Origin: a virus | Reading direction: 5' to 3' (one strand) | DNA: 64,000 bases | IMG/VR virus record: IMGVR_UViG_3300045988_183453 | Part shown: positions 6,828-56,187 of the stretch, piece by piece | How positions within the stretch are numbered: position 1 is the first letter of the stretch | How the letters are laid out: each line of letters begins with the position of its first letter | The notes under the pieces: model-generated | The model's database searches: none | Told to the model about the DNA's origin: nothing | The model's input: only the letters and a program-made list of their open reading frames with translations | Program-made: the position numbers and the translations under genes

Positions 6828-6832
6828 AGCCT

Positions 6833-30812: not shown

Positions 30813-30883
30813 TAAAGACAGAGCGATTGTGAGATGGGGCGATACCGATGCAGTAGGGATGAGAATCTTAGCAGCTAAAAGAG

Positions 30884-30958
30884 TCAACAACCCCGCCTAA
30901 ACCGGTTCACCGGTTATAGACGGGGCTTGCGGGGTAACCCGTAAGCTCGGTTGATTAG
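30884..30958 (+). ncRNA. Conserved structured RNA-like module, copy A
   Basis: caacaaccccgcctaaaccggttcaccggttatagacggggcttgcggggtaacccgtaagctcggttgattagcc. Nested hairpin (ccccgcc[aaccggt-ttca-accggtt]ggcgggg) plus hairpin gcttgcgggg-taa-cccgtaagc. About 92% identical to 43118-43195. Confidence 0.45.
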
Positions 30959-31138
30959 CCTAAGTCTGCTGCTCCGGCGGCAGGAAACTACGTTGTGTAC
31001 TAATAATATAGGCACCTTATCCATGCTCCACAAGTGGTGAGCTCTGCAGGCGTTTCGTTAAACATCTCCGAGGGGAGGAGAAGTGCGAGCGTCATGTCGA
31101 AAGGCTAAAACAGTGCATAACATTGGCGAAGTGGACCA

Positions 31139-31178
31139 CAGGACGCAAGTCCTGACTTATAGTTTTATTACTATTTTA
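31139..31178 (+). terminator. Possible leader terminator before the flotillin gene
   Basis: caggac-GCAA-gtcctg hairpin followed by a U-rich tract (acttatagttttattactatttta). Weak. Confidence 0.35.
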
Positions 31179-39735: not shown

Positions 39736-40332
39736 ATGAGCTATGAACCCATTATCACACCGGGCAGGAATTTCTTTCTTGTCTCGACGGAGTACAAAGA
39801 GAGCTGCTCTGCCTGGTGCCGCAAGCAAATTAGAGCGACACTGAGGACCTGTCAGGGACGAGTCATCATCATTGATGCAACGGGCGAGTACGCGGACTTG
39901 GCGCTTGAACATGACAGATTGATTCGAGAGAAAATTCCGTCCATTATTTATCGGTATAAGCTGGTGGACGGGAAACCGTATATTGCTCATGTCATTGAAG
40001 TTGATACGGAAGCAAATGAAGCACCGCACCTGATTGTATACGATATCAGCCGGACCATAATCATCAGCTGGAAGGTCGGCGTGGAAGCCGTCAATAAAAT
40101 CCTGCAATCCTATGCCGTGATGCAGGACAGTGAAATTGCGTGGCTGTATGTTCCGTTGGACCTATATACCAATGTCAAGCCCGAAAGCGAATCCTGGAAC
40201 ATTCTGGAACGAACCATCAAGGGCAATGAAGGAAAGCTCATGACAGTGCTAACGACTCGAAAATTCACCATCGGCATGGTTCAGCGCTGTTTGCATATGA
40301 CAAAAAATAAACTTTTGGAGGATAGCAAATGA
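39736..40332 (+). CDS. Hypothetical protein
   Basis: 198 aa with RBS AGAGGA. Confidence 0.5.
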   Translation: MSYEPIITPGRNFFLVSTEYKESCSAWCRKQIRATLRTCQGRVIIIDATGEYADLALEHDRLIREKIPSIIYRYKLVDGKPYIAHVIEVDTEANEAPHLIVYDISRTIIISWKVGVEAVNKILQSYAVMQDSEIAWLYVPLDLYTNVKPESESWNILERTIKGNEGKLMTVLTTRKFTIGMVQRCLHMTKNKLLEDSK

Positions 40333-41216
40333 CCAATGAACAGCTGAGAATCGCATTGACGGCGAATGCCGTTACCAAACAGACCCGTAACCATTTTGGG
40401 TTCAGTGACCCGTGTGGGAAGACTCTGGAAGAGTACAACAAATCTTCAACGCTTTGCTGTGTGACGGCAGCGCAGAAAATGAACACGCCGGGTTTCGAGC
40501 GTGTCCTTGCTGCACAGATTTTCCCCTGCTTCACCATCGGCTGCTGGAACCAGACGAAGACGGTCTATGATTTTGACTACGAGTTCCAGAAAATTCTTAT
40601 GGATACGGATGACATGGCGATTCATCAGGATATCCTGCAGCGGCTTCCGATTCGTGATTTCTTTATCCCGGTGTATGACAGCTACGACTACAACGGTATG
40701 TTCGTGCATGTGGAATTCGAAGAGAAAGAGAAGACCACTGCTTTCGGCATCGTTCTTGTCGGCCCGGCCAAAGGCAGCCATGATGATTTCACGTTCCTGA
40801 CTCTGCCTGCCTGGGCCAAAGAAAACCAGAGTTTGACGGAAGCAACTCGGAGCACGAAAGAATACCTGGAAAAGGCAGCCGGGCAGCGGCAGGTAAATGG
40901 TATCAGCGTACCGGCTGTGATGGAAGCAGTTCCTTCGGTCTTTGACGGCGGCACACCTTATGTTCGCCTGGCAATCCTGTGTGCCTACTATCTTGCCAGT
41001 AAGAACCCTGATGTCCGCTTGGAAACTTCCAAAAAGCGCGACCGCCCAGTATTCGTGTTTCAGGGAAAGGCACAGCGAATCAACGTCAAGACATATACCG
41101 TTGGTGAGAATGCGGCCAAAGAATACAAAAAGAATGGGGAAGGCAAAACTCCCCGCTGGCGGCATTACTGGTGCGGCAATGGCCGGGAACGCCGGGAATG
41201 CAAGTTTATTTACTGA
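40329..41216 (+). CDS. Hypothetical protein
   Basis: 295 aa; ATGA overlap with the upstream gene. Confidence 0.5.
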   Translation: MTNEQLRIALTANAVTKQTRNHFGFSDPCGKTLEEYNKSSTLCCVTAAQKMNTPGFERVLAAQIFPCFTIGCWNQTKTVYDFDYEFQKILMDTDDMAIHQDILQRLPIRDFFIPVYDSYDYNGMFVHVEFEEKEKTTAFGIVLVGPAKGSHDDFTFLTLPAWAKENQSLTEATRSTKEYLEKAAGQRQVNGISVPAVMEAVPSVFDGGTPYVRLAILCAYYLASKNPDVRLETSKKRDRPVFVFQGKAQRINVKTYTVGENAAKEYKKNGEGKTPRWRHYWCGNGRERRECKFIY

Positions 41217-42139: not shown

Positions 42140-42748
42140 ATGAGTGAACAGAAAGAAAATGCTCAGCTCGAAGCTTATCGGAAGCTCGTTGAAGATTTCA
42201 AGCGCTTTGTCAGCTCTGAGATTCGGACGGAGGAAAACAGTTACCGAATTGTGGACATGACTTCTGAAGATGCCGAAATCAATGACCCTAGTGTTCCGGT
42301 AACTCAGCTGGAAGACGATAAGGCAGAGAAGCTTGCCGGTATCTGCATGGACCTGTCCAATGCCACGCTGTGGCTCTACTACAACCGTGACAAATTTGCA
42401 AACGTCGAGTTTATGCCCCTGACTGATGAAACTCTGAAAGAATACCAGAAGCAGGCTCAGAATGCTCTGAATGAACCGAAGAGCCCTCTGTATCTGAAAT
42501 CCTGGTATCAGCTCATTGAAATGTTGAGTCAGGAATGTATCCCGCAGCGCTACGAGGACGACGGTCAGCGATATACAGACGTCTATGTGAACACCTATAT
42601 GCTCATGTACCTGACCATGACCCGACTCAAGAATGGCGGCACCTTTACGCGCCTTGCAAACGGGCAGGGAAGCGATGCTGTGAAAATCACGACCATCGCA
42701 ATGTACTACTTCTCCAGCCTTTTGACGGTTCTCTGCACTGAATATTAA
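42140..42748 (+). CDS. Hypothetical protein
   Basis: Start MSEQKENAQ after the RBS AGGGAG; the track start 42092 lies in the promoter. Confidence 0.5.
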   Translation: MSEQKENAQLEAYRKLVEDFKRFVSSEIRTEENSYRIVDMTSEDAEINDPSVPVTQLEDDKAEKLAGICMDLSNATLWLYYNRDKFANVEFMPLTDETLKEYQKQAQNALNEPKSPLYLKSWYQLIEMLSQECIPQRYEDDGQRYTDVYVNTYMLMYLTMTRLKNGGTFTRLANGQGSDAVKITTIAMYYFSSLLTVLCTEY

Positions 42749-42823
42749 GAAATTTTTTCCCGTGTGAGCAGTGACGCTCATGCGGGAATTTTTTGTAATT
42801 TTCTATTGTCAATCTGTGCGAAT

Positions 42824-42843
42824 TGCGTACAATGAAAAATATA
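42824..42843 (+). promoter_or_regulatory. Motif promoter P5 (CTGTGCGAATTGCGTACAAT)
   Basis: TTGTCA-N16-TACAAT. Confidence 0.6.
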
Positions 42844-42866
42844 AACCAAAAATATATCTTATCGTT

Positions 42867-42903
42867 GTCCCGCATGAGTTGTTTGTGCGGGACTTTTTGT
42901 TTG
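42867..42903 (+). terminator. Leader (promoter-proximal) intrinsic terminator / attenuator
   Basis: gtcccgcatgagttgtttgtgcgggac followed by TTTTTGTTT, between P5 and the start codon at 42921. Confidence 0.55.
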
Positions 42904-42920
42904 CGGAAAGGAAATGCACT

Positions 42921-43127
42921 ATGTACGGTTTATCAGAAGAAAGCTTAACGATTGTTGGTGTTATTTTGATTGTGGTTGGTGTCGCTATGATTGGTTGGGG
43001 ATTTGAATGGAATCAGGACATTACCAATGATAAACGGGTCGGAACCGTTGTCAGAGACATTGGCGTTATGGTTTTGGCAACCGGCATCATATTTGTGATG
43101 CAGCGGGCAGTCAACAACCCCGCCTAA
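42921..43127 (+). CDS. Small membrane protein (68 aa)
   Basis: MYGLSEESLTIVGVILIVVGVAMIGWGFEW… after the RBS GAAAGGAAA. Its last 6 codons overlap the conserved structured module. Confidence 0.4.
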   Translation: MYGLSEESLTIVGVILIVVGVAMIGWGFEWNQDITNDKRVGTVVRDIGVMVLATGIIFVMQRAVNNPA

Positions 43128-43195
43128 ACCAGTTCGCCGGTTATAGGCGGGGCTTGCGGGGCAACCCGTAAGCCCGGTTGATTAGCCTTGGTGAA
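43118..43195 (+). ncRNA. Conserved structured RNA-like module, copy B
   Basis: caacaaccccgcctaaaccagttcgccggttataggcggggcttgcggggcaacccgtaagcccggttgattagcc. Same double-hairpin architecture as 30884-30958, with compensatory-looking loop differences. Confidence 0.45.
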
Positions 43196-43474
43196 CGGCA
43201 ACTTCGGTTGCTGCGAACTCCGTTATGCATTTGAGTAAGCAGGAAATGCTGTATCTTAGTCTTTTCTAAGAAGCGCATTCCTCCCCACCAAAGCCTTACG
43301 GCTATAGATGGGGTGTCCTGCTCCATTATCATGAAACTTACAAGAGTGAGCAGGCAGCTCAGAATGCCCGAAAGCAGATTACCCGGCGCGGTGAGACGGC
43401 AGTGTATGCCACAGTAGAGGAAGCCGAAGCGTGGGTCGAACAACAGAAGGCGGCAAGAACCAGGAGGTAATCAT

Positions 43475-44017
43475 ATGCGTACAGACAAAACAGCAAGCCA
43501 CATTTGCTACGAGCTTGACCACGATGTGCAGGAATATGCGAAACGGCTTTTAGCCAAAAAAGTTCTGCACGCGGTACGGCAGGACAATACTGCTTCATTG
43601 CCTGACGAAATGGCAAAAAAACTCTCCGAAACGGCAGTATTTCTGACCGAACGCCTCGCGCTTTTGTATGAGCTGAATTCTGGATTCCGAGGCATCCGAT
43701 TCAGCACTTTCGGAGAACAACCTGCTGTTTACACTACCATGGTCCAGCACAATGCTCCGCTGTACGATGAGCTGATGCTTGGACGGGCCTATAACCTTGC
43801 CAACTACCTTGCTGCTGATAACGCGGATATCAAAGAATCTGCTTTGATGAAGCACAAGGTTTTGGCAGCAATTTATAGTGCCGCTGCACACATGAAAGGG
43901 CAGACTCCGGAGCGGAGAAAAATCTCGATTCAGAACCAGCTGTTTGTGTCTACGGCTGTTGAGCTGTTTGATGGTCTTTTGAGTGCAGCGGAAGAGAAAA
44001 AAGAACGGCAGCGATAA
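43475..44017 (+). CDS. Hypothetical protein
   Basis: 180 aa with RBS AGGAGG. Confidence 0.5.
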   Translation: MRTDKTASHICYELDHDVQEYAKRLLAKKVLHAVRQDNTASLPDEMAKKLSETAVFLTERLALLYELNSGFRGIRFSTFGEQPAVYTTMVQHNAPLYDELMLGRAYNLANYLAADNADIKESALMKHKVLAAIYSAAAHMKGQTPERRKISIQNQLFVSTAVELFDGLLSAAEEKKERQR

Positions 44018-44052
44018 AAGTGCCGCCTGAGTTAGAAATTAGGAGAATTTGC

Positions 44053-44505
44053 ATGATTCGAGTTAAGAAAGAGAACCACCGTAGTTGGTTCATGAGCAAC
44101 TATTATCCTTGCGAATTTGTGATGAATGGGATTCGCTACAAGAACGCTGAAGCAGCGTTTCAGAGTCACAAGGTCCCACTGGAAGAGCGCAGACAGTTTG
44201 CGGACATGCCACCGGCTTCTGCCAAGCGCTTTGGCCGCAATGTAGCTATCCCCGCAAACTGGGGTGAGGCTCGGGACGACGTGATGCGCCGCGTGGTGAT
44301 GGCCAAGTTCGAGCAGAATGAGGACCTCAAACAGCGCCTCCTCGAAACGGGTACGCAGCCTATTGAGGAAGACACGACCAGCTGGCATGACAATTACTGG
44401 GGCAACTGCCACTGCCCGAAATGCCAGAACATCCCAGGTCAAAACCGGCTTGGGATTATTCTGATGGAAACGAGGGATAAACTGAAAAAGCAAGCGGGCA
44501 AATAA
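44053..44505 (+). CDS. NADAR-domain protein (YbiA-like ADP-ribose / N-glycosidase family)
   Basis: Colinear with E. coli YbiA: NYYPCEFVMNGIRYKNAEAAFQSHKV; VMRRVVMAKFEQNEDLKQRLLETG; SWHDNYWG…GQNRLGIILMETR. Confidence 0.85.
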   Translation: MIRVKKENHRSWFMSNYYPCEFVMNGIRYKNAEAAFQSHKVPLEERRQFADMPPASAKRFGRNVAIPANWGEARDDVMRRVVMAKFEQNEDLKQRLLETGTQPIEEDTTSWHDNYWGNCHCPKCQNIPGQNRLGIILMETRDKLKKQAGK

Positions 44506-44707
44506 TGCTTGCAATGCATTGCGGGTTCCATATAATTAAAACCGTAATCAAAAAGAACTATCTTTTGCGAGGACTCCGTTGCCGACGGTGTTCTCGTTTT
44601 CTTTTTTCAAGACAAAAGGCTGCCGCCCAGTAATGGGTAGCAGCCTTCTTTTTTTTGATTGTGTCAGCCAATATGGCAGCAAATCACCTTACCGCGTTCA
44701 GAACGAT

Positions 44708-46594
44708 TCACTGCACAATCTCGCCAAGGTCGTTTGCATATTTCGGGCCACACATCATGAAGTAGTTGACGGGGCCGTACTCCAGACCGAGCTCCTGCGC
44801 GTATGCCTTGATAGCTTCCAGAACGTCCTCTTTCTTGAGGCCAAACTTGGAATGCAGACGGGCAAACTCTTTGTCAGAGACAGAAACGCAAGAGCAATTT
44901 TCTGCATCGGTTTCTTTGCTGCCCAGCATCCCGTCAAAGATGTCCTGCCCTGCACAGAGAATCGTCTCATTGTTCATCGCATAGGCGATAACGGAAGCCT
45001 TACAGTCAAAGTCGCTGTCTTCCACAAGGAAATCCTCAGGGCGGCCGTGACGCTCAACAACGTTTTCATAGATGTCCCGGAGTTCGATAGGAGCAGAAGG
45101 AGCGGTCAGAGCTGCTTTATGAAGGCGCATGAATTCCACAAACTTTTCATTCGAGAGGGTATCGGTATAAAAGCCGATGCCGGAAACGCGAACCTTCACT
45201 TCGCTGGCAAAGTAATCGTCAATTTTGGAAACGATTTTCTGCTGGACCCGCTTGTATGCTTCCTGAACATTGGAAGCCGTGTAAAATACCGGGAACTTCA
45301 TGATGTCGATTCCCTCCGGCAGACTCGCGTCATAGGCCGCATCAATGCCACCTCGCAGCGCCGGAACCGCGTCATGCAGCTCTTTCACAGAAGAAATGTA
45401 TCCGGTAATGTACAGCTCATCGTTTTTGCTGTAATGCCCGATAAGTCCCACATAGAGGGTCTGCATCAGCATCCGCTTGAAGCTGAACCAACAAAGACGA
45501 ATGGGTAGAATGACATTAGCAGCCGTACCTTCCGCACGATAGGTGCCGGGGGCAGAGACCTTTTCCAGCAGAATCTGGTCGTTCTTGTCACCGTATTTTT
45601 CCTTGAAAAGAGCTTGAAGAATTTCAGTGGACGAAAGAGGAGTGGACATTGGAATCGTTTCATTCAGAAAAGAGAGGAATGCATCCACGTTGTCTTTCTG
45701 CCATGCGTCATCAGACATGCTTGCACGCTGCATAGAGAGCTTGTCTTTCCCGTCGTCAGGCAAGGGCTTATACCCACAGGCGATACGAAGCTCGTTCTCC
45801 GTGACAGCATCCGTTGCGCTTGCAATTTTCTTGATGGTATTTTCGGTCGGCTGAGCTTTTGCGTTGCCATTCACGAGGCTGCTGATATACCCACGAGTCA
45901 GTCCTGCCTGAAACGCAAACTTACCCTGTGTTCGGGTTCCGATGGCTTTTTTGACCAGCGATGCCAGCCTTTGAAAGTCGGGCTCTTTGGGAAAGGTGGC
46001 CTCCGTATCCTTATTGCTGTTCTTTTCAAGTACCGACTTGTCCCAACCGGTGACAAGAGAATACCCAATATCCCTCAAGGATTGATAGGCAACCCCATTC
46101 TGGTCAAGAGCCGGGGAGTATGTACCGCTGTTATCTTCCAGCTGCTCTACTGCGTCACGCACCATCCTTGCTTCGTTCATCAGGATGACGTCCGGGGCTT
46201 CAAGCCGGGCAAGACTCTTGTACCGATTATTGAGGCGCTCGACTCGTGCGGCCAATGCAGTGATGTTGGCAACTTGGTCTTCCGTTGCATGGGCAGAGAT
46301 ATCTGCACCAAGTTCAAAATGGTTCAGTGCAGGAATATCCACGCCTTTGCTCTTGGCGAATTCCACAATGGCTTCCGCGCCATAGAAACGCTTCTCATGG
46401 GCTGCGACAACTTTCGTTATCGTGTCGGCCGAGTTGTCCAGCTCAAGCACTTCACCTTTTCCGGCATCCTCGACATAACACCTGGCGTTGGTGAGAAAGC
46501 CTTTCAAAAAATCAGCATCCACATCCAGCTTCTTAGCGATGCCGGGCAGCTGCTTATAGAAAATCACGGGCGTGGCGAGGTTAACAGAAATCAT
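44708..46594 (-). CDS. Large protein with central XRE-type HTH (628 aa)
   Basis: Central GLTRGYISSLVNGNAKAQPTENTIKKIASATDAVTENELRIACGY, an HTH_XRE pattern. The flanking domains are unassigned. Confidence 0.55.
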   Translation of the reverse strand: MISVNLATPVIFYKQLPGIAKKLDVDADFLKGFLTNARCYVEDAGKGEVLELDNSADTITKVVAAHEKRFYGAEAIVEFAKSKGVDIPALNHFELGADISAHATEDQVANITALAARVERLNNRYKSLARLEAPDVILMNEARMVRDAVEQLEDNSGTYSPALDQNGVAYQSLRDIGYSLVTGWDKSVLEKNSNKDTEATFPKEPDFQRLASLVKKAIGTRTQGKFAFQAGLTRGYISSLVNGNAKAQPTENTIKKIASATDAVTENELRIACGYKPLPDDGKDKLSMQRASMSDDAWQKDNVDAFLSFLNETIPMSTPLSSTEILQALFKEKYGDKNDQILLEKVSAPGTYRAEGTAANVILPIRLCWFSFKRMLMQTLYVGLIGHYSKNDELYITGYISSVKELHDAVPALRGGIDAAYDASLPEGIDIMKFPVFYTASNVQEAYKRVQQKIVSKIDDYFASEVKVRVSGIGFYTDTLSNEKFVEFMRLHKAALTAPSAPIELRDIYENVVERHGRPEDFLVEDSDFDCKASVIAYAMNNETILCAGQDIFDGMLGSKETDAENCSCVSVSDKEFARLHSKFGLKKEDVLEAIKAYAQELGLEYGPVNYFMMCGPKYANDLGEIVQ

Positions 46595-46837
46595 GGTGTA
46601 CTCCTTTCAAACGTGTCATTTACTGTACAAAACTGTCATCTTATGTAATTATAATAGCACATCTCGCACTAAAAAGCAAGCGCTAATTTACAACAAATGA
46701 CAATAAAACACACAAGATGACATATTTGAGCAAAGCGATTGATTCTTGAGCTTTCCGGCTTGGTGACAGAACAAGCTCTATGCGCCTTGTCTTTACCACA
46801 ATTTTGCCACAGTTTTGCCTTGTGCATCCGTGCAAAT

Positions 46838-46857
46838 TGAATGCAATTAAAGATGTC
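46838..46857 (+). promoter_or_regulatory. Variant motif promoter P6 (CCGTGCAAATTGAATGCAAT)
   Basis: TTGTGC-N16-TGCAAT, in the divergent region between 44708..46594(-) and 46897(+). Confidence 0.45.
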
Positions 46858-46896
46858 GAAAGATAAAGCACAACACACAAAAAAGGAAATTTCACT

Positions 46897-47217
46897 ATGA
46901 ACACCAGTATTTTGAAACTCGAAGCCACTGTAATCCGCCCCAAAGACGATGATGAACTTGACGACCTTGCCGCATCCATCAGCTTTCCCGTCGAATGCGA
47001 TGATGAAGCAATTGGCGAGGCTCTGGGCGACCATGACCTGATGGCCTATGTTGTCGGAGAGCTACACGACCTCGTTGTCCGAATGCGTCCCGAATGGCTG
47101 GATAATGAGGATACTAGCCTGACCATCAAGGCATTCCTGGACGAAGCTGAGTACCAGACGTTCAAGGGCCTTGTCGCGATGAAAGAAGACAGCTACACCT
47201 TTGATATTGAGGGCTAA
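46897..47217 (+). CDS. Small acidic protein (106 aa)
   Basis: RBS AAAAAGGAAA. Confidence 0.5.
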   Translation: MNTSILKLEATVIRPKDDDELDDLAASISFPVECDDEAIGEALGDHDLMAYVVGELHDLVVRMRPEWLDNEDTSLTIKAFLDEAEYQTFKGLVAMKEDSYTFDIEG

Positions 47218-47244
47218 ACGCCACAGAGCAAAAAGCAAACCCTG

Positions 47245-47274
47245 CCTGCAGTAAAATGCGGGTAGGACTTTTTT
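47245..47274 (+). terminator. Possible terminator
   Basis: cctgca-gtaaaa-tgcggg followed by ttttttg after a 6-nt gap. Confidence 0.35.
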
Positions 47275-47279
47275 GTCTG

Positions 47280-47340
47280 CGTAGCTGCATCCTTTTGTCC
47301 GCAGAAACCGTAGGTGCCAGGATGCGTAGCTGCCAGTATG
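47280..47340. repeat. Second locus of the GCGTAGCTGC / AACCGTAGGTGCC motif pair
   Basis: gtctgcgtagctgc…aaaccgtaggtgccaggatgcgtagctgcc; the same 10-12-mers occur in 13965-14195. Confidence 0.55.
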
Positions 47341-47352
47341 ACTTGACCTGAT

Positions 47353-47370
47353 GTGCGAATTTTATACAAT
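47353..47370 (+). promoter_or_regulatory. Motif promoter P7 (TGTGCGAATTTTATACAAT)
   Basis: TTGACC-N16-TACAAT. Confidence 0.55.
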
Positions 47371-47376
47371 CGGATT

Positions 47377-47455
47377 TGTACGAGAGATACTATTCACACA
47401 ATAGGATTCACACGAAGCTGCTCGGGAGCCGTATGGCTGCTGGGTGGCTTTTTCT
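47377..47455 (+). ncRNA. Candidate short RNA (~80 nt) from P7, ending in a T-run terminator
   Basis: Contains AGATACTA…ATAGGATTCACA, shared with the leader at 54915-54965. 3' end …GGGTGGCTTTTTCTTTT. Confidence 0.4.
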
Positions 47456-47458
47456 TTT

Positions 47459-47477
47459 GTGCGAGTTGCGTACAATA
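47459..47477 (+). promoter_or_regulatory. Motif promoter P8 (TGTGCGAGTTGCGTACAAT)
   Basis: Directly after the P7 RNA terminator; weak -35. Confidence 0.5.
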
Positions 47478-47500
47478 TAAATCAAACGGAGGAAATTACC

Positions 47501-47908
47501 ATGAAAAAATTTATTGGAACTGCTTTGGCATTATGCTGCCTGGCTCTACCTTTGGCTGGCTGTGAGGACGCAATCAGCACTGTGACAAGTACCACAATGT
47601 CTGAACTCGAAGATATCCCGAACCAGATATTGGCCACACCGGAAAGTGCTGAGATGAAACTGGAATACAATTACATTCATTTTCGTTACGACAACATCTG
47701 GACTGTATCCGCTCTCGTAAGCTACGAAATCGTGGACAACGGGCAAAACATCAAATTTGAAATCAACGATAGTCGTTATCGAGACAAGGTTTTCTATACC
47801 AGCATGTCGAATGTAGAGCTCGTATACCGAGACAATAACGTTGATTATGACACGGACTACACCATCTATCCAGGGAATGCTTCGAAATTTGGAAAGGGTG
47901 GTAAGTAA
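47501..47908 (+). CDS. Lipoprotein (135 aa)
   Basis: MKKFIGTALALCCLALPLAGC lipobox after the RBS GGAGGAAA. Confidence 0.6.
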   Translation: MKKFIGTALALCCLALPLAGCEDAISTVTSTTMSELEDIPNQILATPESAEMKLEYNYIHFRYDNIWTVSALVSYEIVDNGQNIKFEINDSRYRDKVFYTSMSNVELVYRDNNVDYDTDYTIYPGNASKFGKGGK

Positions 47909-47909
47909 G

Positions 47910-48386
47910 ATGGGCATTAGATTTATCGACGGCAATATTTTTTCACGACTTTCTGCGAGTAAGCCAACTTACATTTGCCAGCAAGTAAATTGCAAAGGCG
48001 TGATGGGAGCCGGACTCGCGATGCAAATTCGCAGCCAATGGCCGGTAGTATATCGGCGCTATCTGGGACTTTGCTATGGCAGTGATGGCAACAAGCTTGG
48101 GACTTATCAAGAAGTTCTGGTAGAGCCGAAGCTGTACATCGTGAACCTGTTCGGCCAAAATGGCTATGGCCGGAGCGAAAGACAAACAAATTACGCTGCA
48201 CTGGCGGCTGCGCTGTTCTCGTTTTTTAGAGACTGCGCTCGAAAGAATCAGGACGTAACTATCCGGCTGCCATATGGTTTAGGCTGCGGACTTGCCGGAG
48301 GCGACTGGGACACGGTTCTGGACATCATCAGCGATGCAGCAAAAGCCTGGAATCTGAATGTTGAGATTTGGGAACTCCAGAAATAA
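47910..48386 (+). CDS. Macro-domain protein (ADP-ribose binding / hydrolase fold)
   Basis: FIDGNIF…YICQQVNCKGVMGAGLAMQI … LPYGLGCGLAGGDW, colinear with YmdB/MacroD-type macro domains. ATG 1 nt after the upstream stop. Confidence 0.6.
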   Translation: MGIRFIDGNIFSRLSASKPTYICQQVNCKGVMGAGLAMQIRSQWPVVYRRYLGLCYGSDGNKLGTYQEVLVEPKLYIVNLFGQNGYGRSERQTNYAALAAALFSFFRDCARKNQDVTIRLPYGLGCGLAGGDWDTVLDIISDAAKAWNLNVEIWELQK

Positions 48387-48395
48387 TAGCAATAA

Positions 48396-48433
48396 GACCT
48401 TTACCGAAATTCGGTAAGGGTCTTTCTTTTTTT
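48396..48433 (+). terminator. Rho-independent terminator
   Basis: agacctttaccgaaattcggtaagggtct followed by TTCTTTTTTT. Confidence 0.7.
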
Positions 48434-48556
48434 GTAGGGATGCAAATATGTACAGATTGCAAACAAATGACACCTGCCGTTGCAGAAAAAGCACGATAGT
48501 GGGATAATATTAGTAAAGAAACAACAACATCATCAGTAAAGTAAGTGAAAAAGCCT

Positions 48557-49564
48557 ATGACAAACGCAGAACTAAAAGCAATCGTCCAGCGCGAGGAATA
48601 CGATTTCCTGCGCACTAACAAACACTTGGGGAGCAACATTTTATTCCTAACGCTTAGCGGCAGTCACGCCTACGGAACCAACGTCGAAGGCTCCGATATC
48701 GATATACGTGGCGTGGCAGGCTCACCCGAAATCTTAGGGTTTAACCACTTCGAGCAGGCCATTGACAACCGGACAGATACAGTCATCTACGCTGTGAACA
48801 AGTTTGTCAGCTTGCTTGCGCAGGGTAATCCCAACATTATCGAACTTTTTGGCAATGACCCGGAGCTATATGTGAACATGACGCCGGAAGGCCAAATGCT
48901 GCTTGACAATAGGGAACTGTTCTTGACTCGGCGCATTGCCTACAGCTATGGCGGCTTTGCGAACGACCAGCTCAGACGTTTGCAGATGGGACTCCTTCGT
49001 AATGGGGCCTCGCCGGAAGCATTCAAGAACAAATTCGAGAAGAGAAGCCTGGAACGGTCGATTACCGGATGGGGCGTGGATGACATTTTTGAAATCTCCA
49101 TCAGTGAGGATACAGATGAAGAAGGCAAACATCCGCTCCTGATTTCTTGCAGCTTGAACGATTATCCAGTCACCTCTCTAAAGTCGCTGCTAAAGAGTCT
49201 GACTACGACCATCGACCAGTATGAGCAGCCGCAGCATCCGAAAGCACAAAAAGATGCTGCCCACATCAACAAACACGCGATGCACATTGTGCGGTTATAC
49301 TACACGGCGTTCGATATTCTGGAAAAAGGCGAGATTATCACTCACCGAGACAAGGAACGCGAGGAACTGTTGGCGATTCGCAACGGCAAGTACCTGCGTG
49401 AAGACGGGTCGTACGCACCCGAATTCTTTGAGTTTGTTGATGCGCTTGAAAAGAGATTTCAGGATGACGTGAGGAAAACCTCTCTTCCTGCTAAGCCTGA
49501 CTTTGGAAAAATTGAGGAGCTTCTGGTGGAAATCAACAAGTCATATTTGCGGCGTATCGTGTGA
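48557..49564 (+). CDS. Pol-beta superfamily nucleotidyltransferase-domain protein
   Basis: LTLSGSHAYGTNVEGSDIDIRGV, the hG[GS]…[DE]h[DE]h NTase signature. Confidence 0.6.
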   Translation: MTNAELKAIVQREEYDFLRTNKHLGSNILFLTLSGSHAYGTNVEGSDIDIRGVAGSPEILGFNHFEQAIDNRTDTVIYAVNKFVSLLAQGNPNIIELFGNDPELYVNMTPEGQMLLDNRELFLTRRIAYSYGGFANDQLRRLQMGLLRNGASPEAFKNKFEKRSLERSITGWGVDDIFEISISEDTDEEGKHPLLISCSLNDYPVTSLKSLLKSLTTTIDQYEQPQHPKAQKDAAHINKHAMHIVRLYYTAFDILEKGEIITHRDKEREELLAIRNGKYLREDGSYAPEFFEFVDALEKRFQDDVRKTSLPAKPDFGKIEELLVEINKSYLRRIV

Positions 49565-49688
49565 AGCGGAACACCAACGACAACAACCATTAAGGCTGTA
49601 CAAGATTATGCGCTCATTCGCAAGTCGCGGGTGGGCGTTCTTTTTTGCCCAAAAAACAAAAATAAACATAGTAAAAAGCCTTGCACAT

Positions 49689-49708
49689 CTGTGCGAATCA
49701 GATATAAT
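49689..49708 (+). promoter_or_regulatory. Motif promoter P9 (CTGTGCGAATCAGATATAAT)
   Basis: TTGCAC-N16-TATAAT. Confidence 0.6.
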
Positions 49709-49732
49709 AACCCTAATAAGATAAAAATTGTG

Positions 49733-49773
49733 CCCTGACGGCATCTGAATTGGATGCTGCCGGGGCATTTTTG
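49733..49773 (+). terminator. Leader hairpin plus T-run (attenuator-like) before the helicase gene
   Basis: ccctgacggcatctgaattggatgctgccgggg followed by cATTTTTG. Confidence 0.45.
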
Positions 49774-49794
49774 TTTGTTAAGGAGAATTTGGCT

Positions 49795-52515
49795 ATGACA
49801 CTGAACGACTTGTCAAGCGAACAGCAGGAATTCGTACATTTGGCATTGTCGGGCAAAAACGTATTGTGTGACGCCTGCATCGGCAGCGGAAAAACATCGA
49901 CTATCAACGTACTCTGCGATGCATATCCACCAGAACGGCGTATTTTGTACTTGACCTACAACCGATTACTCAAACTTGATGCCAAAGACAAAATCAAGAA
50001 TGGCAATGTCCTGGTTCAGAACTATCATGGATTTGCAAGCCTGCTGCTGAACAAAAAGGGAATCCGGAATTGCGGACAGGGCGAACAGCTTGCCATGGTA
50101 TTGGAAAAGAAAATTCCGATTCCGCCGATTGATACTCTTATCATTGACGAGTATCAGGATATCAATGACGAGATTGCAGAACTGCTCAAATATATCCGTT
50201 CTCAGAATCCGGGCCTTCAAATCGTCGCAGTGGGCGATATGAAGCAGAAAATCTACGATGATACAGCGCTGGATGTCTGGGAGTTCATGCAGAATTTTCT
50301 CGGCCGCCATGAACAGGTGGTTTTCACGAAATGCTTCCGTATTTCTCATGACTTGGCAGAACGACTCGGCAATATCTGGGGCAAGACCATCAACGGCGTA
50401 AATGGTTCCTGCATCGTGGAACAGATGTCAGTCGATGAGGTGACGGAGTTTCTGAATAAACAAAACCCGAAAGATGTTTTGTGTCTGGGCGCTCGAATCG
50501 GAGCTATGACAAAGGTGCTCAATGACCTGGAAAATCGCCCCGGAAACCTCTATGACAAGCATCACGTCTATGCAAGTATCGCGGACAATGACGGGGATAA
50601 GGCGGTAGCACCTTCCTCAGATGTTGGTATCTTCACAACATTTGACGGCAGCAAAGGTATGGAGCGACCTATCTGTGTCGTGTTCGATTTCACGGAAGAA
50701 TACTGGTCGTCTCGCACAAGCAAACCGATGGCACGATATGAGATTCTTCGGAATCTGTTTTGTGTCGCAGCAAGCCGAGGAAAGCAGCGAATCATTTTCG
50801 TAAACTCAGACCATCCGTTGAGCGATAAATCTCTGATGACCCCAACTGAAACTCTTCGCGGATTTCCGCATCCGTTCGCATTCTCTGAGATGTTTGACCA
50901 TAAATTCATCGAGGATGTAGATGCCTGCTATAAGCTGTTGGAAGTCACACCGATTGAACGTAATGATACCACGACCATTGATATCCAGACGGCAGATGCA
51001 ATGATTGATTTGTCTCCCTGCATCAGCATCTACATGCAGGCAGGATTCTTTAATTCCTACGATATAGATGACGCACTTGCGTATTACATGGACCTGCATA
51101 AAGACATGCAGTATTTGAAAATCAAGAAGGGCGCAACGGTCGAGGATAAGGTTCTACTGCTCACAGCACTCGAAACGAATCAGTGCAGGTATGTAAAACA
51201 GGTCAAGCCTCCTTTTGTGAACGCAAAAGCCAAAATGTCGCTCAGTATGCGGCTTGGAACCGTGTTCACTCCCGATGAATATGTTCAGGCACGCGGCGAT
51301 ATCGAAATTCATACTAAGGACTATAAAGTGATTTATACCTCGGGCCTTGCAGATGTCGTAAAGAACAACACCGTCTACTGCATCAAGTTCATTAGCAGTC
51401 TGGCACACAAGCATTTTCTGCAGTGTGCGTGTTCTATGATTGCGCTGGGTCTTCCATATGGCGTTGTCTGGAACGTGAAAAGTAACCTGATGTACAGCGT
51501 AAAAATCAAGGATAAGGACGCTCTGATTGACGCAATCCTCAAGTGCATCACGAAACGAGCTTACAACGGCGCGGATTATTACACCTGCCGAAAAGGCTTT
51601 GTACAGGATACGGCATCGATTATTGACCGCTGGACTGACGACGGATATGCGGAAGAGCCCACCACTATCACTTCTGGCGACGGTATCGCCATCATCAAGC
51701 AGGGAACTCGCTATTTTGTGATGGACGGAGCACGCCGAAACACCCTGAACGATAATTTCGGGCTTGGTTTTGCCGATGTGAAAGACGCTTGTCTTGCTTA
51801 TGCGAAGAGTTGCGAACTTCAAAAAACCGTGGACCATGATTCTCCTTATTCCGAAGTCGAGTTCTGGCTCGACCAGAACAAAGCGTTTGAGGAATACATG
51901 ACGCAAGTAAGCCATGAAATCGAACAGCACAAGGAAGGACCGTATGCAAAGTATAAGTCTTTTGCTGCTCCCGCTGTCCGAAAGATGCTGGCTGAAAAGG
52001 GACTGACCATCACGTTCCCGGAAAAAGCCCTCATCAAGGTCTGGAAGATGCGCCGTGTCGAAGATGCCATGTATCAGAAAATTGAAGAAGCAAAGAAGCA
52101 GAACAGCTCCAATGTACCGCTTGATGAGGCGTTCTTTGACTCTGAACTGGTGGATTCCGTTGAGGGAAGCATCGAAAGCGCCAAGGCAAAATCCAAGCCC
52201 AAAAAGGAATCCGCATTACCATTTTCCAAGTACGGCACAGATGAGAAGAAGAGCTATCGTGTCGTGAAAAGCGATGAACTCTCAAAGCCCAACCAGCCCC
52301 GTTATGTTGTGGTCGAGACCGCTACTGATAAAGTCCTGGACAATGCTAACGGATATGGCTACCTTTCCTATCAGGCTGCCTGGAAAGGCTATTCGTACAA
52401 GAGCAAGCATCATCTGGACGGCACGAAGAAAACGATAAGTAAGAGTGCAAAAGAGCAGGCAAAGAAAAAGGCGGCTTTCTTTTCAACTGACTCGGAGCAG
52501 CTCAGCTTTGGCTGA
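49795..52515 (+). CDS. UvrD/Rep-like superfamily 1 helicase
   Basis: Walker A CDACIGSGKTS and Walker B LIIDEYQDI (DExQD). 906 aa with RBS AAGGAGAA. Confidence 0.7.
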   Translation: MTLNDLSSEQQEFVHLALSGKNVLCDACIGSGKTSTINVLCDAYPPERRILYLTYNRLLKLDAKDKIKNGNVLVQNYHGFASLLLNKKGIRNCGQGEQLAMVLEKKIPIPPIDTLIIDEYQDINDEIAELLKYIRSQNPGLQIVAVGDMKQKIYDDTALDVWEFMQNFLGRHEQVVFTKCFRISHDLAERLGNIWGKTINGVNGSCIVEQMSVDEVTEFLNKQNPKDVLCLGARIGAMTKVLNDLENRPGNLYDKHHVYASIADNDGDKAVAPSSDVGIFTTFDGSKGMERPICVVFDFTEEYWSSRTSKPMARYEILRNLFCVAASRGKQRIIFVNSDHPLSDKSLMTPTETLRGFPHPFAFSEMFDHKFIEDVDACYKLLEVTPIERNDTTTIDIQTADAMIDLSPCISIYMQAGFFNSYDIDDALAYYMDLHKDMQYLKIKKGATVEDKVLLLTALETNQCRYVKQVKPPFVNAKAKMSLSMRLGTVFTPDEYVQARGDIEIHTKDYKVIYTSGLADVVKNNTVYCIKFISSLAHKHFLQCACSMIALGLPYGVVWNVKSNLMYSVKIKDKDALIDAILKCITKRAYNGADYYTCRKGFVQDTASIIDRWTDDGYAEEPTTITSGDGIAIIKQGTRYFVMDGARRNTLNDNFGLGFADVKDACLAYAKSCELQKTVDHDSPYSEVEFWLDQNKAFEEYMTQVSHEIEQHKEGPYAKYKSFAAPAVRKMLAEKGLTITFPEKALIKVWKMRRVEDAMYQKIEEAKKQNSSNVPLDEAFFDSELVDSVEGSIESAKAKSKPKKESALPFSKYGTDEKKSYRVVKSDELSKPNQPRYVVVETATDKVLDNANGYGYLSYQAAWKGYSYKSKHHLDGTKKTISKSAKEQAKKKAAFFSTDSEQLSFG

Positions 52516-52741
52516 TTCAGAAAATCGAACTATAGCTCATGAACTCGTGGTTCAATCGGCAGGGATGCCATATCGCTGCTGATGAGAGGGGGCGTTATGC
52601 ACAGACTCAGAACGTTGCGCATTGTTTCGATGCAGCCACGCCAACTCGACCAACACGAATATAATCACAAATCAGGGAATTTTTCTGAATATCAATAACA
52701 AATATCAAACACACGCCTACTTGGGCAGAAAGGAATCACAA

Positions 52742-53608
52742 ATGGGACGCTATAATTTTAATCAGAGGACTCGGGACGGCTACGAAATCTCGCCCGAACA
52801 GGCTAAAAAGTGGCTCGAAAAAAACGACAATAACCGGAACATCAACTACGCCAAAGTCAAGAAGATGGCGAAAGACATGAAGGAAGGACACTGGGATACA
52901 ACACATCAAGGTATCGCCATTGCCTCCGACGGTACACTGGTCGATGGTCAGCATAGATTGCTCGCTATCGTGGAGTCCGGCGTGACTGTGCGTATGAATG
53001 TTACCTTCAATGCCTCCAAATCTCAACATATCGACTCCGGCAACAGCCGCTCAATGGCAAACCGTGTACAGATGTCGGACTACGATATGAGTTGGACGAA
53101 CAAGACGATTCTCTCCGCAGCAAACCTCATTGGTCGCCTGTTTGCAGGCTCAAATCTCAGCCACGAAGAAGCTCTGAGCGAGTGGCTGATGAGGTATCGC
53201 ACGCAAATCGAATCTACATCCAAATGCATCAAAAAAGCTACGCTGCCGGGACTCAACTCCGCCGGTACGACAGCGGCTATCATTGTAGCCGCCATGAACG
53301 ATGTCCCCGCTATCTACATTGAGAAATTCATGGACGTGTTCTATTCTGGATTCACCAACAACGAAGCCGAGCATTATGCTATCACGCTGCGGGACGAACT
53401 GCTGCGTGAAAATCGTGTCAAACGCGGCACACAGTATGCAAAGTTTGCCTTCTACCGTACAGCCAACCGGCTGAACCAGTATTATAAGACGGCTACCGGG
53501 CAGCGCGTTGCCAAGCGCGTCAATGACGGCGATTTCCCGTACAATGTTTATGATGCCAACGGCGGTATCGTAAAACCAGAAACCAAGAAAACCAAGAAAG
53601 CCGGGTAA
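52742..53608 (+). CDS. DGQHR-domain protein (ParB/Srx-fold; DndB-like)
   Basis: EGHWDTTHQGIAIASDGTLVDGQHRLLAI contains the literal DGQHR motif. The start MGRYNF is inferred from the first ATG; the upstream part of the track ORF has many rare codons. Confidence 0.55.
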   Translation: MGRYNFNQRTRDGYEISPEQAKKWLEKNDNNRNINYAKVKKMAKDMKEGHWDTTHQGIAIASDGTLVDGQHRLLAIVESGVTVRMNVTFNASKSQHIDSGNSRSMANRVQMSDYDMSWTNKTILSAANLIGRLFAGSNLSHEEALSEWLMRYRTQIESTSKCIKKATLPGLNSAGTTAAIIVAAMNDVPAIYIEKFMDVFYSGFTNNEAEHYAITLRDELLRENRVKRGTQYAKFAFYRTANRLNQYYKTATGQRVAKRVNDGDFPYNVYDANGGIVKPETKKTKKAG

Positions 53609-53715
53609 TGCCATCAACTTGAGTCTTAACAGCTGTATGGATGTTGCAAAACTAAGATATAGCCCAAAAAATTCCGATAAATCGCATAAAAAATTGTTGC
53701 AAGGAGACAAAAACT

Positions 53716-53991
53716 ATGAATAAGTTTGAAGCAAGGAGCACGCTGGGGAGCGAGGCTGTCCCGGTTTTCGACGATGACGGTGAGCTCACGGAATGGCTGC
53801 ACCGGGATAACTACACTGTTGAAGAGCTGGAACTGATGAACTTCGTCGGCAAAGAAAAGCCTGTCATCAATAAGGATGGCGTGAAAATCGTTCGGGATGG
53901 CACGGTCATTCGGAGAACCAACACTGAAACAAGAAAAACTGAATTTCTATTCATCCCGCGCATTGTCACCAGCGAACAGAAAACGGTGTGA
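53716..53991 (+). CDS. Hypothetical small protein
   Basis: 91 aa with RBS AAGGAGA. Confidence 0.45.
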   Translation: MNKFEARSTLGSEAVPVFDDDGELTEWLHRDNYTVEELELMNFVGKEKPVINKDGVKIVRDGTVIRRTNTETRKTEFLFIPRIVTSEQKTV

Positions 53992-54281
53992 GGTGCAACG
54001 TGGTCAAAATTTATGGGTCCAGTGACGACCTTGTCTGCCTGGATAATTCCAACTATGGGGTCGATGAAATTGGTTGCTTCGATGTCAAGGGAGTTCGGCT
54101 GTTCCTGGATGATGACACGATTTTGGTAGTGCGCTATTCGAACGGTATCTGGCGCATCGAAATCGAGCGAAAGGGTACTGCACCATATCAGCATGAGGTC
54201 TGTGCGGGCAATGATGAGGCCGATTACAGCGATATCTTTTGTACGGAATCCGACGTTATTGCGCACGAAATCATTCGATGA
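53988..54281 (+). CDS. Hypothetical small protein
   Basis: GTGA overlap with the upstream gene; 97 aa. Confidence 0.4.
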   Translation: MRCNVVKIYGSSDDLVCLDNSNYGVDEIGCFDVKGVRLFLDDDTILVVRYSNGIWRIEIERKGTAPYQHEVCAGNDEADYSDIFCTESDVIAHEIIR

Positions 54282-54295
54282 GGATTGGAGCAGCC

Positions 54296-54481
54296 ATGGC
54301 AAAAACTCTTCTGACTCAAAAAATAGAATCAGCGCTAAAGGTTTGGCATCCTGCCAACTATGGTGAATACCAGGTTGATTCGTTCCGTCAAGGCTTCGAC
54401 GCTCTGGAAGTACCTGTCGAGTGCGGTTCGATAAAATCCGGCCTTGTTCGCCTATTCAAAACTGGAATATCAGTAATGTGA
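54296..54481 (+). CDS. Hypothetical small protein (61 aa)
   Basis: ATG after the RBS GAGGATTGGAG. Confidence 0.35.
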   Translation: MAKTLLTQKIESALKVWHPANYGEYQVDSFRQGFDALEVPVECGSIKSGLVRLFKTGISVM

Positions 54482-54913: not shown

Positions 54914-54969
54914 AATGTAAAGTGTGAACAGATACTAAGCAATCAGTAGGATTCACAATCTGTATTTTA

Positions 54970-55008
54970 AGCGGACTTATCCCATCACGGGGTAGGTCCG
55001 CTTTTTTT
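54970..55008 (+). terminator. Leader terminator before the MBL-fold lipoprotein gene
   Basis: agcggacttatcccatcacggggtaggtccgct followed by TTTTTTTG. The leader shares AGATACTA…TAGGATTCACA with the 47377 RNA. Confidence 0.6.
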
Positions 55009-55026: not shown

Positions 55027-56187
55027 ATGAAACTCAAAAACAATCTATTCCGGAGCACGGCGGCAATCATCGCTACGCTCTTTGCACTCAGCTTCACCGG
55101 CTGCGGTCAGAATCCGATAATATCGGAAAGTCCATCCAGTATCGGGGTCGTCTCAGAAAGTACTGTGAGCAGTGACCAGACGGCTGGCGGTTCGGTGGAC
55201 GGCAGCTTTACCATTCATTTTATAGACGTAGGGCAGGCGGATTCCGCTCTTGTTACCTGCGACGGCCACTCAATGCTCATTGATGGCGGCAATGTCGATG
55301 ATTCTAACGTTCTTTACTCTGTCATGCAGCGTGAAACCGATGGACACCTGGATTATGTCGTTGGGACTCACGCGCACGAAGACCACATCGGCGGCTTGTC
55401 CGGTGCTTTTGAGGCCGTCTCTGCGGACATGACTCTATGCCCTGTGACAGAATACGACAGCAAAGCATTTCGGGACTTTGCAAGCTACGCGGAGCAAAAA
55501 GGCGGAGGCATCACGATACCGGATGTGGGTGAAACCTACACTCTAGGGGAAGCAGAATTCACGATAGTTGGTGTTAATTCTGTTCCCGATGATACGAACA
55601 ATACATCGATTGTTTTGCGTATTGTCTATGGAGACACCTCGTTCCTCTTTACCGGAGATGCGGAACAGGAAGCGGAAAACGTGATGCTTGCATCGGGACA
55701 AGACATTCAGTCAACAGTTCTGAAAGTAGGGCATCATGGCTCAAGTACATCTACCTCAGAGGCTTTTCTGGATGCGGTAAATCCAACATATGCTGTGATT
55801 TCTTGTGGCGCAGGGAACAGTTACGGCCACCCGCATCAGGAAACACTCGACAAGCTGCAAAACAAAGGTGTCGAGGTTTATCGCACAGACCTGCTGGGTG
55901 ATATTTACTGCACCTCGGATGGCAAAGAGGTAAGTTTCACTTCCGGTGAATATCATGATGAGAATCGGATTGAAGCCGGTTCTGCTGCAGAGTCCAATGA
56001 TGAACAAAACAGCAGACCTCTTGTAATAGACGAAACATACGTTCTGAATACAAGCACTATGAAGTTTCACAAACCCGATTGCTCTGTAGTCGAGTCCATG
56101 AGTCAAAAGAATAGAATCGACTATATGGGGCCCCGCGATGAGCTCATCCAGGAAGGGTATTCGGCGTGCGGGATTTGCAAACCTTAA
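55027..56187 (+). CDS. Secreted lipoprotein with MBL-fold metallo-hydrolase domain (ComEC-type extracellular beta-lactamase fold) and Cys-containing C-terminal domain
   Basis: Lipobox LSFTGC; HxHxDH motif in VVGTHAHEDHIGGL; C-terminal …PDCSVV…GYSACGICKP. Confidence 0.7.
   Translation: MKLKNNLFRSTAAIIATLFALSFTGCGQNPIISESPSSIGVVSESTVSSDQTAGGSVDGSFTIHFIDVGQADSALVTCDGHSMLIDGGNVDDSNVLYSVMQRETDGHLDYVVGTHAHEDHIGGLSGAFEAVSADMTLCPVTEYDSKAFRDFASYAEQKGGGITIPDVGETYTLGEAEFTIVGVNSVPDDTNNTSIVLRIVYGDTSFLFTGDAEQEAENVMLASGQDIQSTVLKVGHHGSSTSTSEAFLDAVNPTYAVISCGAGNSYGHPHQETLDKLQNKGVEVYRTDLLGDIYCTSDGKEVSFTSGEYHDENRIEAGSAAESNDEQNSRPLVIDETYVLNTSTMKFHKPDCSVVESMSQKNRIDYMGPRDELIQEGYSACGICKP

Follow-up and report, generated by a model that had tools for sequence, protein, structure and literature searches.

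The DNA analysed here, 64,000 nucleotides of IMG/VR record IMGVR_UViG_3300045988_183453 and called the window below, is part of a large conjugative element, since it encodes a type IV coupling protein (T4CP; 1489-3657) and a VirB4-like ATPase (6824-9493) and since a pilin of the type IV secretion system (T4SS) is encoded directly upstream of it, next to a surface protein of about 2000 amino acids (aa) and an M23 peptidase. This agrees with the first-pass annotation, made from the letters alone, which had called the element conjugative. From about 21 kb on, the window holds a long run of plus-strand cargo genes. Within this run, positions 44053-53608 carry genes for a NADAR protein, a macrodomain protein, a Pol-beta nucleotidyltransferase, a UvrD-like helicase and a protein with a DGQHRL motif, which had been proposed to form an anti-defence or DNA-repair island. 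The observation was largely right and is partly confirmed, four of the five domain calls being upheld. The anti-defence interpretation is reasonable and partly supported, but it concerns two genes, NADAR and macro, for which we infer it.

The NADAR gene (44053..44505, plus strand) encodes a 150-aa orphan protein, a putative ADP-ribosyl N-glycohydrolase. It matched PF08719 with 90.3 bits (cutoff 35.1, E 2e-25) over positions 6-163 of the 163-position profile, exceeded the cutoff of TIGR02464 (78.7 against 73.7 bits) and matched phrog_1017 at 4e-35. Along its length it was colinear with E. coli YbiA (2b3w; alignment from residue 15), as had been claimed, and with Phytophthora PnNADAR (8bau). The residues by which PnNADAR binds and cleaves ADP-ribose are E43, K50, E125, D130 and W133 (PMC11543638). 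Inspection of the catalytic residues, suggested along with the original call, found all five kept, in NAEAAF, SHK, PIEED, HD and YWG of the alignment. Because a glutamate occupies the position of PnNADAR E125, the protein is assigned by its alignment to the YbiA subfamily, members of which remove ADP-ribose from guanine and cytosine (G-ADPr and C-ADPr) in DNA and RNA in vitro (PMC11125620; PMC12945103). An identity as DarG1 was rejected: there is no adjacent DarT1, the E125 position has Glu instead of Asp, and the 150 aa leave no N-terminal extension.

AdfN (phage T4 gp30.3) is an orphan NADAR that counters DarTG1 (PMC11825919). Like AdfN, the window NADAR is encoded by itself on a mobile element, with no cognate DarT, and has equivalents of the catalytic Glu and Lys, and it weakly matched the Pfam family Phage_30_3 directly (7.5e-4). 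The two differ in that phage NADARs have His at the E125 position, where the window protein has the Glu of the YbiA type, and in that AdfN is phage-borne, whereas the window NADAR sits on a conjugative element; E. coli YbiA, which is of the same type, failed to rescue cells from DarT1 toxicity. Its closest phage relative, from SPbetaL3, is 45% identical and encoded 3.4 kb from the anti-Gabija gene gad1. On another conjugative plasmid, the MOBP plasmid pEfm12493 of E. faecium (L014 8935-11799), a 954-aa protein begins with a NADAR domain; its gene lies two short open reading frames (ORFs) downstream of the one for the MobP2 relaxase, with genes for primase, topoisomerase, AbiE and ssb nearby.

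The second hydrolase gene (47910..48386, plus strand) encodes a 158-aa orphan macrodomain protein of the SCO6735/BT1257 type (ALC1-like class). It starts with the ATG at 47910, one base past the stop of a lipoprotein gene, and not with the TTG at 47841; the 158-aa product is on record. Pfam, which had been named as the check for the macrodomain call, gave no family at E<=0.01, Macro PF01661 included. The call stood nevertheless through matches to DarG models (NCBIfam 4.5e-13, PADLOC 3.5e-14), through phrog_335 (5e-37) and through macrodomains in the PDB, among them SCO6735 (5e3b, 1.9e-11), BT1257 (2fg1, 6e-10) and DarG.

[quoted passage not shown] Alignment to 5e3b showed that Asn27, Gln85, Gly126 and Gly128 are all conserved in the window protein, the glycines within a GCGLAGG loop. 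Catalytic-residue inspection, which had been suggested here too, found these four kept; the Gln stands in place of DarG Lys80, as it does in SCO6735, where it replaces the lysine of DarG and TARG1. The window protein differs from SCO6735 in lacking Lys34, Lys89 and His24, in being lipoprotein-coupled on a conjugative element, and in being only remotely related over the aligned part. AdfM (PhiKZ gp104), a stand-alone macro protein that counters DarTG2 (PMC13309987), and DarG belong to the same macrodomain class, and DarG profiles matched the window protein over the whole macrodomain. AdfM and DarG, however, carry the FPTK lysine (a lysine, in FPTK or ITKK, is shared by DarG, TARG1 and AdfM), whereas the window protein reads FGQNG, like SCO6735. 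The TARG1 sequence in this comparison serves only as an illustration; the Lys/Gln equivalence itself rests on PMC9411070.

Directly upstream of the macro gene lies a gene for a 135-aa lipoprotein (47501..47908, plus strand; lipobox LAGC), to which it is translationally coupled (stop, one nucleotide, ATG). In distant elements the lipoprotein gene is followed by one for an unrelated 138-aa protein in the place of macro. The gene 35 nt upstream of NADAR (43475..44017, plus strand), called in the contigs L001-L006, encodes a 180-aa protein (184 aa in sister contigs) that had no match in Pfam, NCBIfam, PHROG or PADLOC and gave no signal of DarT or of an ADP-ribosyltransferase (ART). Neither of these two neighbours of the hydrolase genes (43475-44017 and 47501-47908) is an ART or DarT by Pfam, NCBIfam and PADLOC, and the other ORFs scanned did not yield an ART either. 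By sequence, both ADP-ribose hydrolases are intact and orphan. A DarG2 identity of the macro protein was discarded: NF048014 gave 49.2 bits against a cutoff of 250, over positions 1-148 of 338 only, Gln takes the place of the catalytic Lys80, a C-terminal DarT-binding domain is absent, and the upstream gene encodes the lipoprotein and not DarT2. A true DarTG module was rejected on the same grounds, namely neighbours that are not ARTs, the missing DarT-binding domain and a score far below the DarG cutoff.

Our favoured explanation, to which we give a probability of roughly one half, is that the region forms a modular array for counter-defence or establishment, where NADAR and macro act like AdfN and AdfM and reverse DarT-type base ADP-ribosylation. 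The NADAR protein, being of the YbiA type, would strip ADP-ribose from guanine, and probably from cytosine, in ssDNA or RNA, and the SCO6735-type macrodomain would strip it from thymine. Together the two hydrolases would reverse the ADP-ribosylation of bases by such transferases of the recipient as are DarT1/DarT2-like or pierisin-like. These transferases act on ssDNA, and it is single-stranded that a conjugative element reaches the recipient; incoming conjugative DNA would therefore be an obvious target of DarT enzymes, a step for which we found no paper that tests it.

The array itself is not a single operon. Transcription units were drawn from matches to a promoter motif and from a terminator scan. 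The motif, TTG-N7-GTGCGA-N6-TAnAAT, occurred 18 times between 21204 and 63393 of the window, against 0.55 expected. All matches except one (17/18) lie on the plus strand, as do the genes between 24 and 63 kb with few exceptions. Its spacer is conserved and holds a TGCGnnnTGCG direct repeat; exact copies were also found in the distant related elements L010, L011 and L013.

A copy at 42806..42833 (plus strand) heads a unit of three genes, for a 114/115-aa protein, the 180/184-aa protein and NADAR, and between this promoter and NADAR there is no further motif copy or strong terminator beyond a terminator-like hairpin at 42867-42893. The next copy (44509..44536, plus strand) follows right after NADAR and runs antisense into the 3' end of the gene for an XRE-type regulator. 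Another (46820..46847, plus strand) is divergent from the regulator gene and drives the gene for a 106-aa protein (46897..47217, plus strand), which is followed by a terminator at 47241-47266. Two tandem copies (47343-47370 and 47449-47476, plus strand) serve the lipoprotein-macro operon, which is terminated at 48394-48424. Upstream of the nucleotidyltransferase gene we read by eye a degenerate plus-strand copy with about three mismatches near 48481, and a terminator at 49610-49638 closes that unit; the helicase unit has its own copy at 49681..49708 (plus strand). The gene for the DGQHRL (ParB-like) protein has no motif promoter of its own and probably follows the helicase in that unit, along with several small genes. 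The statement that each gene has its own motif promoter therefore applied to macro, through the lipoprotein unit, and to the helicase, and weakly to the nucleotidyltransferase; it failed for NADAR, the third gene behind its promoter, and for the ParB-like gene. At least five transcription units make up this same-strand cargo array.

The motif promoters at 42806 and 54889 are each followed, 60-80 nt downstream and before the first gene, by a strong terminator-like hairpin (42867-42893 and 54969-55003). They may act as attenuators or as antitermination leaders, or may represent small RNAs.

Comparison of sister contigs showed the same modularity. A block at 42442-48436, which begins within the 42092-42748 gene and takes in the macro terminator, is common to all six (L001-L006). 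In L004 everything past the macro terminator is replaced, so that the nucleotidyltransferase and helicase genes are gone while NADAR, the XRE gene and macro are kept; L002 lacks 52526-54446, the ParB-like gene included; and in L006 an IS605/TnpB element (L006 5383-6525) is inserted at 44535/44536, inside the motif promoter between NADAR and the XRE gene. The terminators at 47241, 48394 and 49610 and these cassette differences ruled out a single operon or single system, and the initial view of a five-gene functional unit had to be given up. The five genes are neighbours in a modular cassette array.

Separate transcription units and separable cassettes could also mean that the genes have no common function, the hydrolases being YbiA-like metabolic N-glycosidases among unrelated adjacent cargo, and the name of TIGR02464, riboflavin-intermediate N-glycosidase, would fit such a role. 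We nevertheless consider this improbable. No riboflavin genes are present, and homologues of the two hydrolases are infrequent on plasmids: 50 of 72,556 plasmid records have one of NADAR (663 phage records) and 35 of the 72,556 one of macro (565 phage records), so that finding both together with a SLOG protein on one element would be unlikely by chance.

The Pol-beta nucleotidyltransferase (48545..49564, plus strand) proved to be a member of the RlaP family. It matched PF10127 with 74.3 bits (cutoff 23, E 1.7e-20) over positions 9-140 of 249 only and phrog_388 over its full length (6e-50), and the GS...DxD motif of Pol-beta enzymes is intact (SGSHAYGTNVEGSDIDIRG). PDB sequence and profile searches gave no match. 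RlaP extends the damaged 3' ends of RNAs by one to two nucleotides and restores aminoacylation (bioRxiv 10.64898/2025.12.29.696909). By analogy, the window protein would be an RNA 3'-end repair enzyme and not an ADP-ribose enzyme.

On this evidence the genes might constitute an RNA repair set directed against tRNA-cutting defence nucleases, with RlaP rebuilding tRNA 3' ends and macro and NADAR disposing of the ADP-ribose by-products of 2'-phosphate removal of the Tpt1/KptA type; gene context does link NADAR and Macro to RNA repair systems (PMC9503650). This has little probability in our view. No RNA ligase (RtcB, Rnl) or KptA/Tpt1 domain was found in any scanned ORF of the window, and RlaP forms a separate transcription unit that is absent from L004, which keeps NADAR and macro. 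The RNA ligase neighbour that gave the RlaP family its name is likewise missing, no ligase domain being detected in the neighbours or in other scanned ORFs. Within the counter-defence array that we favour, RlaP would serve by a different route, repairing the 3' ends of RNAs that defence RNases have damaged.

The 906-aa protein encoded at 49795..52515 (plus strand) is a UvrD-like superfamily 1 helicase, as had been proposed. AAA_19 (40.5 bits, cutoff 25.1) and UvrD-helicase (33 bits, cutoff 23) exceeded their cutoffs, phrog_1967 matched as well, and the motifs GSGKT, DEYQD and VAASR are present. A compact core of about residues 1-340 is followed by a C-terminal region of about 560 aa without a match, and no UvrD_C model matched. 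An identity as GajB of Gabija was not retained, the PADLOC matches spanning the generic DExQD region only.

The last of the five genes (52742..53608, plus strand) encodes a 288-aa basic protein that matched phrog_5931 (1e-39) and phrog_12305 (0.0015). Its family has no precomputed Pfam domain, and DGQHRL is invariant across 27 homologues, which bears out the motif part of the original call. The proposed DndB-like family and ParB/sulfiredoxin (Srx) fold fared less well: NCBIfam and Pfam models (DGQHR TIGR03187, DndB PF14072, ParB) gave no match for the window protein, DndB reached 0.0068 at best and did so in 4 of the 27 homologues, and PDB sequence and profile searches were negative. An AlphaFold model of good confidence score (pLDDT 89) retrieved ParB-N, Noc, Srx and SbnI with Foldseek, all of them non-significant at E>0.28. 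The DGQHR/DndB assignment is plausible only, and a ParB/Srx-like N-terminal domain is putative. Helicase and ParB-like protein would be DNA-handling cassettes of the array.

A helicase of this type, the hydrolases and a Y-family polymerase, encoded at 21459-22760 of the window, could instead serve DNA damage tolerance for the element or its host; DarT lesions are reported to stall replication and to be handled by RecF recombination and nucleotide excision repair (PMC7003065). Related to this is immunity to ADP-ribosylating toxins of competitors, which has been proposed for SCO6735 and NADARs (PMC12945103). We rate both as quite unlikely, in that the genes lie scattered among AcrVA2-like, Lar-like and orphan antitoxin genes and vary as cassettes, a behaviour typical of conflict genes and not of housekeeping repair.

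Several of these neighbours are of counter-defence type. A 295-aa AcrVA2-like protein is encoded at 40329-41216 (plus strand), with a precomputed PF26125 match in sister contigs. Variant L004 encodes an orphan RnlB-like antitoxin (L004 14221-14574; PF15933, 5.8e-11), and the gene called before it is Zeta-toxin-like and has no RnlA domain. Farther downstream, in an extension of the array, L007 encodes a homologue of the Lar restriction-alleviation protein (Lar_restr_allev; 13379-13579). Orphan DNA methyltransferases were found in the equivalent array of related elements with the same backbone regulator.

A YpsA/SLOG-family protein (23495-24025, plus strand; PF06908, 3e-14) completes a trio of Macro, NADAR and SLOG on the element. 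In phages these three co-occur more often than chance (Iyer et al. 2022, PMC9503650), and the same authors argued that they clear small molecules. Applied to the window, the three would remove ADP-ribose-derived compounds such as the cyclic ADP-ribose isomers of Thoeris-type systems, ADP-ribose-1''-phosphate or NAD breakdown products, and not DNA marks. The macro protein indeed matched ADP-ribose-1''-phosphate phosphatases in the PDB (6lft, 7e-6), and phrog_335 is annotated as a phosphatase. On balance we think this unlikely, since the closest characterised relatives (SCO6735, NADAR/YbiA, AdfN and AdfM) act on base-linked ADP-ribose in nucleic acids and no Nudix or sponge partner is encoded beside the macro protein. 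A homologue of the YpsA/SLOG protein adjoins an XRE homologue in L012.

The array resembles the leading-region anti-defence islands of conjugative plasmids (Samuel and Burstein 2024, PMC11541004) in being a one-directional array of small genes of anti-defence type and in carrying known markers, AcrVA2-like and Lar-like. It differs from them in that its promoters are sigma-70-like duplex promoters with a conserved spacer and not shown ssDNA promoters. Its placement in a leading region, next to an origin of transfer (oriT), would be conjectural. The full text of that survey does not mention ADP-ribose, NADAR or DarG.

Taken together, the intact orphan hydrolases, the conjugative element, the counter-defence-type neighbours and the precedents of AdfN/AdfM and SCO6735 argue for reversal of DarT-type ADP-ribosylation, although for two genes rather than five, with a macro protein that is not DarG-like at the catalytic residue, a NADAR of the YbiA type and a RlaP that is no ADP-ribose enzyme. 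A number of points weigh against it. In vitro activity of E. coli YbiA and, in one study, of the T4 NADAR was not matched by rescue from DarT1 in cells (PMC11125620). The macro protein lacks the two DNA-binding lysines of SCO6735, Lys34 and Lys89, and close kinship to PhiKZ AdfM was rejected, a 30-residue local match indicating remote similarity only. A cytoplasmic-looking macro protein co-translated with an exported lipoprotein is a pairing that the model leaves unexplained. NADAR and macro are missing from more distant elements that share the backbone regulator, and neither relaxase nor oriT was identified in the window or within 10 kb on either side.

The most unusual item of the region, and the one most worth following up, is the regulator encoded by its only minus-strand gene (44708..46594), a conserved opposite-strand gene of the element family. 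The 628-aa protein had been annotated as XRE-type with a helix-turn-helix (HTH), in agreement with an HTH_3 match at residues 222-269; the first-pass annotation missed the module that precedes this domain. Homology to the bacterial RNA polymerase's beta' clamp helices (E. coli beta' 264-321) spans residues 109-177, and the C-terminal domain had no match. Evidence for the homology came from several sides. The protein was matched by rpoC models at 3e-7 and in phmmer by 73 distinct beta' sequences of the PDB. When the family profile was aligned with genuine beta' by hhalign, the probability was 96.7% (E 4e-10) with 38% identity over 69 columns, and an exhaustive search of 1.84 billion proteins returned true, Pfam-confirmed beta' subunits at E 2e-9. 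The family is invariant at the equivalents of beta' R278, L285, A287-P288, N294-E295 and N309. An AlphaFold model (pLDDT 83) has a helical hairpin at 105-153; all 50 of the 50 Foldseek matches listed were largest-subunit chains of RNA polymerases, and 67 matches fell below E 1e-3, most of them aligned over about 230 columns. From sequence and model comparison, the N-terminus is thus homologous to the clamp helices.

In RNA polymerase, sigma region 2 and NusG-type factors (the NGN domain of NusG and RfaH) dock mainly on the clamp helices. The equivalents of beta' R275 and A302, which are reported sigma-binding determinants, are not conserved here. The module, of about 190 aa, also differs from the clamp helices of beta' in that it occurs outside any polymerase, either fused to an HTH and a domain without a match or standing alone. 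Stand-alone clamp-like proteins of about 200-240 aa were found on other conjugative elements, one of them divergent to an operon with a coupling protein. We found no relevant literature on clamp-helix mimics.

Since the clamp helices dock sigma region 2 and NusG-type factors, the XRE protein may regulate the array promoters through a polymerase-mimicking contact, which we offer as a hypothesis only. Distant relatives of the regulator (40-55% identity) again face a same-strand array in which the exact promoter motif recurs, with one copy divergent from the gene start, an arrangement present in L010, L011 and L013. In the counter-defence reading, the independently transcribed, exchangeable cassettes of the long same-strand cargo stretch mostly share one promoter type, which the divergent XRE protein with its beta' clamp-like module would control, so that the array could fire together in a cell without the regulator. 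A wider version we think rather unlikely: the XRE protein and its stand-alone relatives may form a new class of mobile-element transcription factors with captured beta' clamp helices. Tethered by the HTH at the conserved GTGCGA spacer and imitating the site on which sigma region 2 (or NusG) docks, they would silence the array in established hosts, and all of it, the paired guanine and thymine erasers included, would be freed at once in a naive recipient.

XRE-family homologues of about 40% identity (P0018, P0060, P0082, P0098 and P0105) sit on contigs of 345-352 kb, which suggests that these contigs are complete giant extrachromosomal elements of a related family. Between the regulator and the lipoprotein gene, the 106-aa protein mentioned above is very acidic (pI 4.05, net charge about -19) and conserved at 44-48% in the distant elements L011 and L013, with the lipoprotein alongside. 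Its composition resembles that of DNA-mimic anti-restriction proteins.

The element belongs to human-gut Clostridia, its host being known only roughly. Its closest VirB4 relatives among sequenced plasmids, at 38% identity, are on plasmids of 142-247 kb from Vescimonas and Subdoligranulum, and among GTDB representative genomes the XRE family profile matched one human-gut Clostridiales metagenome-assembled genome only. The macro protein had no match in these representative genomes, the XRE protein none in PLSDB, and near-identical DNA was absent from phage and plasmid collections. The element is nevertheless common in the human gut, because the exact macro protein occurred in 182 blocks of a metagenome collection; the contigs shown were all from human-gut-type assemblies.

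The best-supported reading of the ADP-ribose part is that it belongs to a known type of system and represents counterparts of AdfN and AdfM on a plasmid. In phages each type of eraser has been shown separately as counter-defence, and no report of a conjugative element carrying both was found in the literature searched. DarT toxins modify ssDNA only, and conjugative DNA arrives single-stranded; DarTG-type systems could therefore naturally obstruct conjugation, with erasers on plasmids as the answer to them. If this is true, the idea of an orphan antitoxin as counter-defence would reach beyond phages to take in plasmids very common in the human gut, and a simple test system would be gained. The beta'-clamp-like regulator could, separately, point to a novel means by which mobile elements disturb or exploit the sigma/NusG docking site of the host RNA polymerase.

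Two further features of the window lie outside the five-gene region. The gene at 55027-56187 (plus strand) encodes a protein of the metallo-beta-lactamase fold that has a signal peptide of lipoprotein type and a C-terminus rich in Cys. This is probably not the anti-Pycsar protein Apyc1, an identity that we did not adopt in view of a precomputed match that was only faint and of the lipoprotein signal. Rfam found no known RNA in the region itself. It detected a HEARO RNA (RF02033, 96 bits), of the omega-RNA type tied to IscB/HNH, at 30883-31141 (plus strand), just downstream of motif promoters at 30618 and 30785. No IscB-like ORF was recognised beside this RNA, and the adjacent ORF encodes a flotillin/Band_7 protein.

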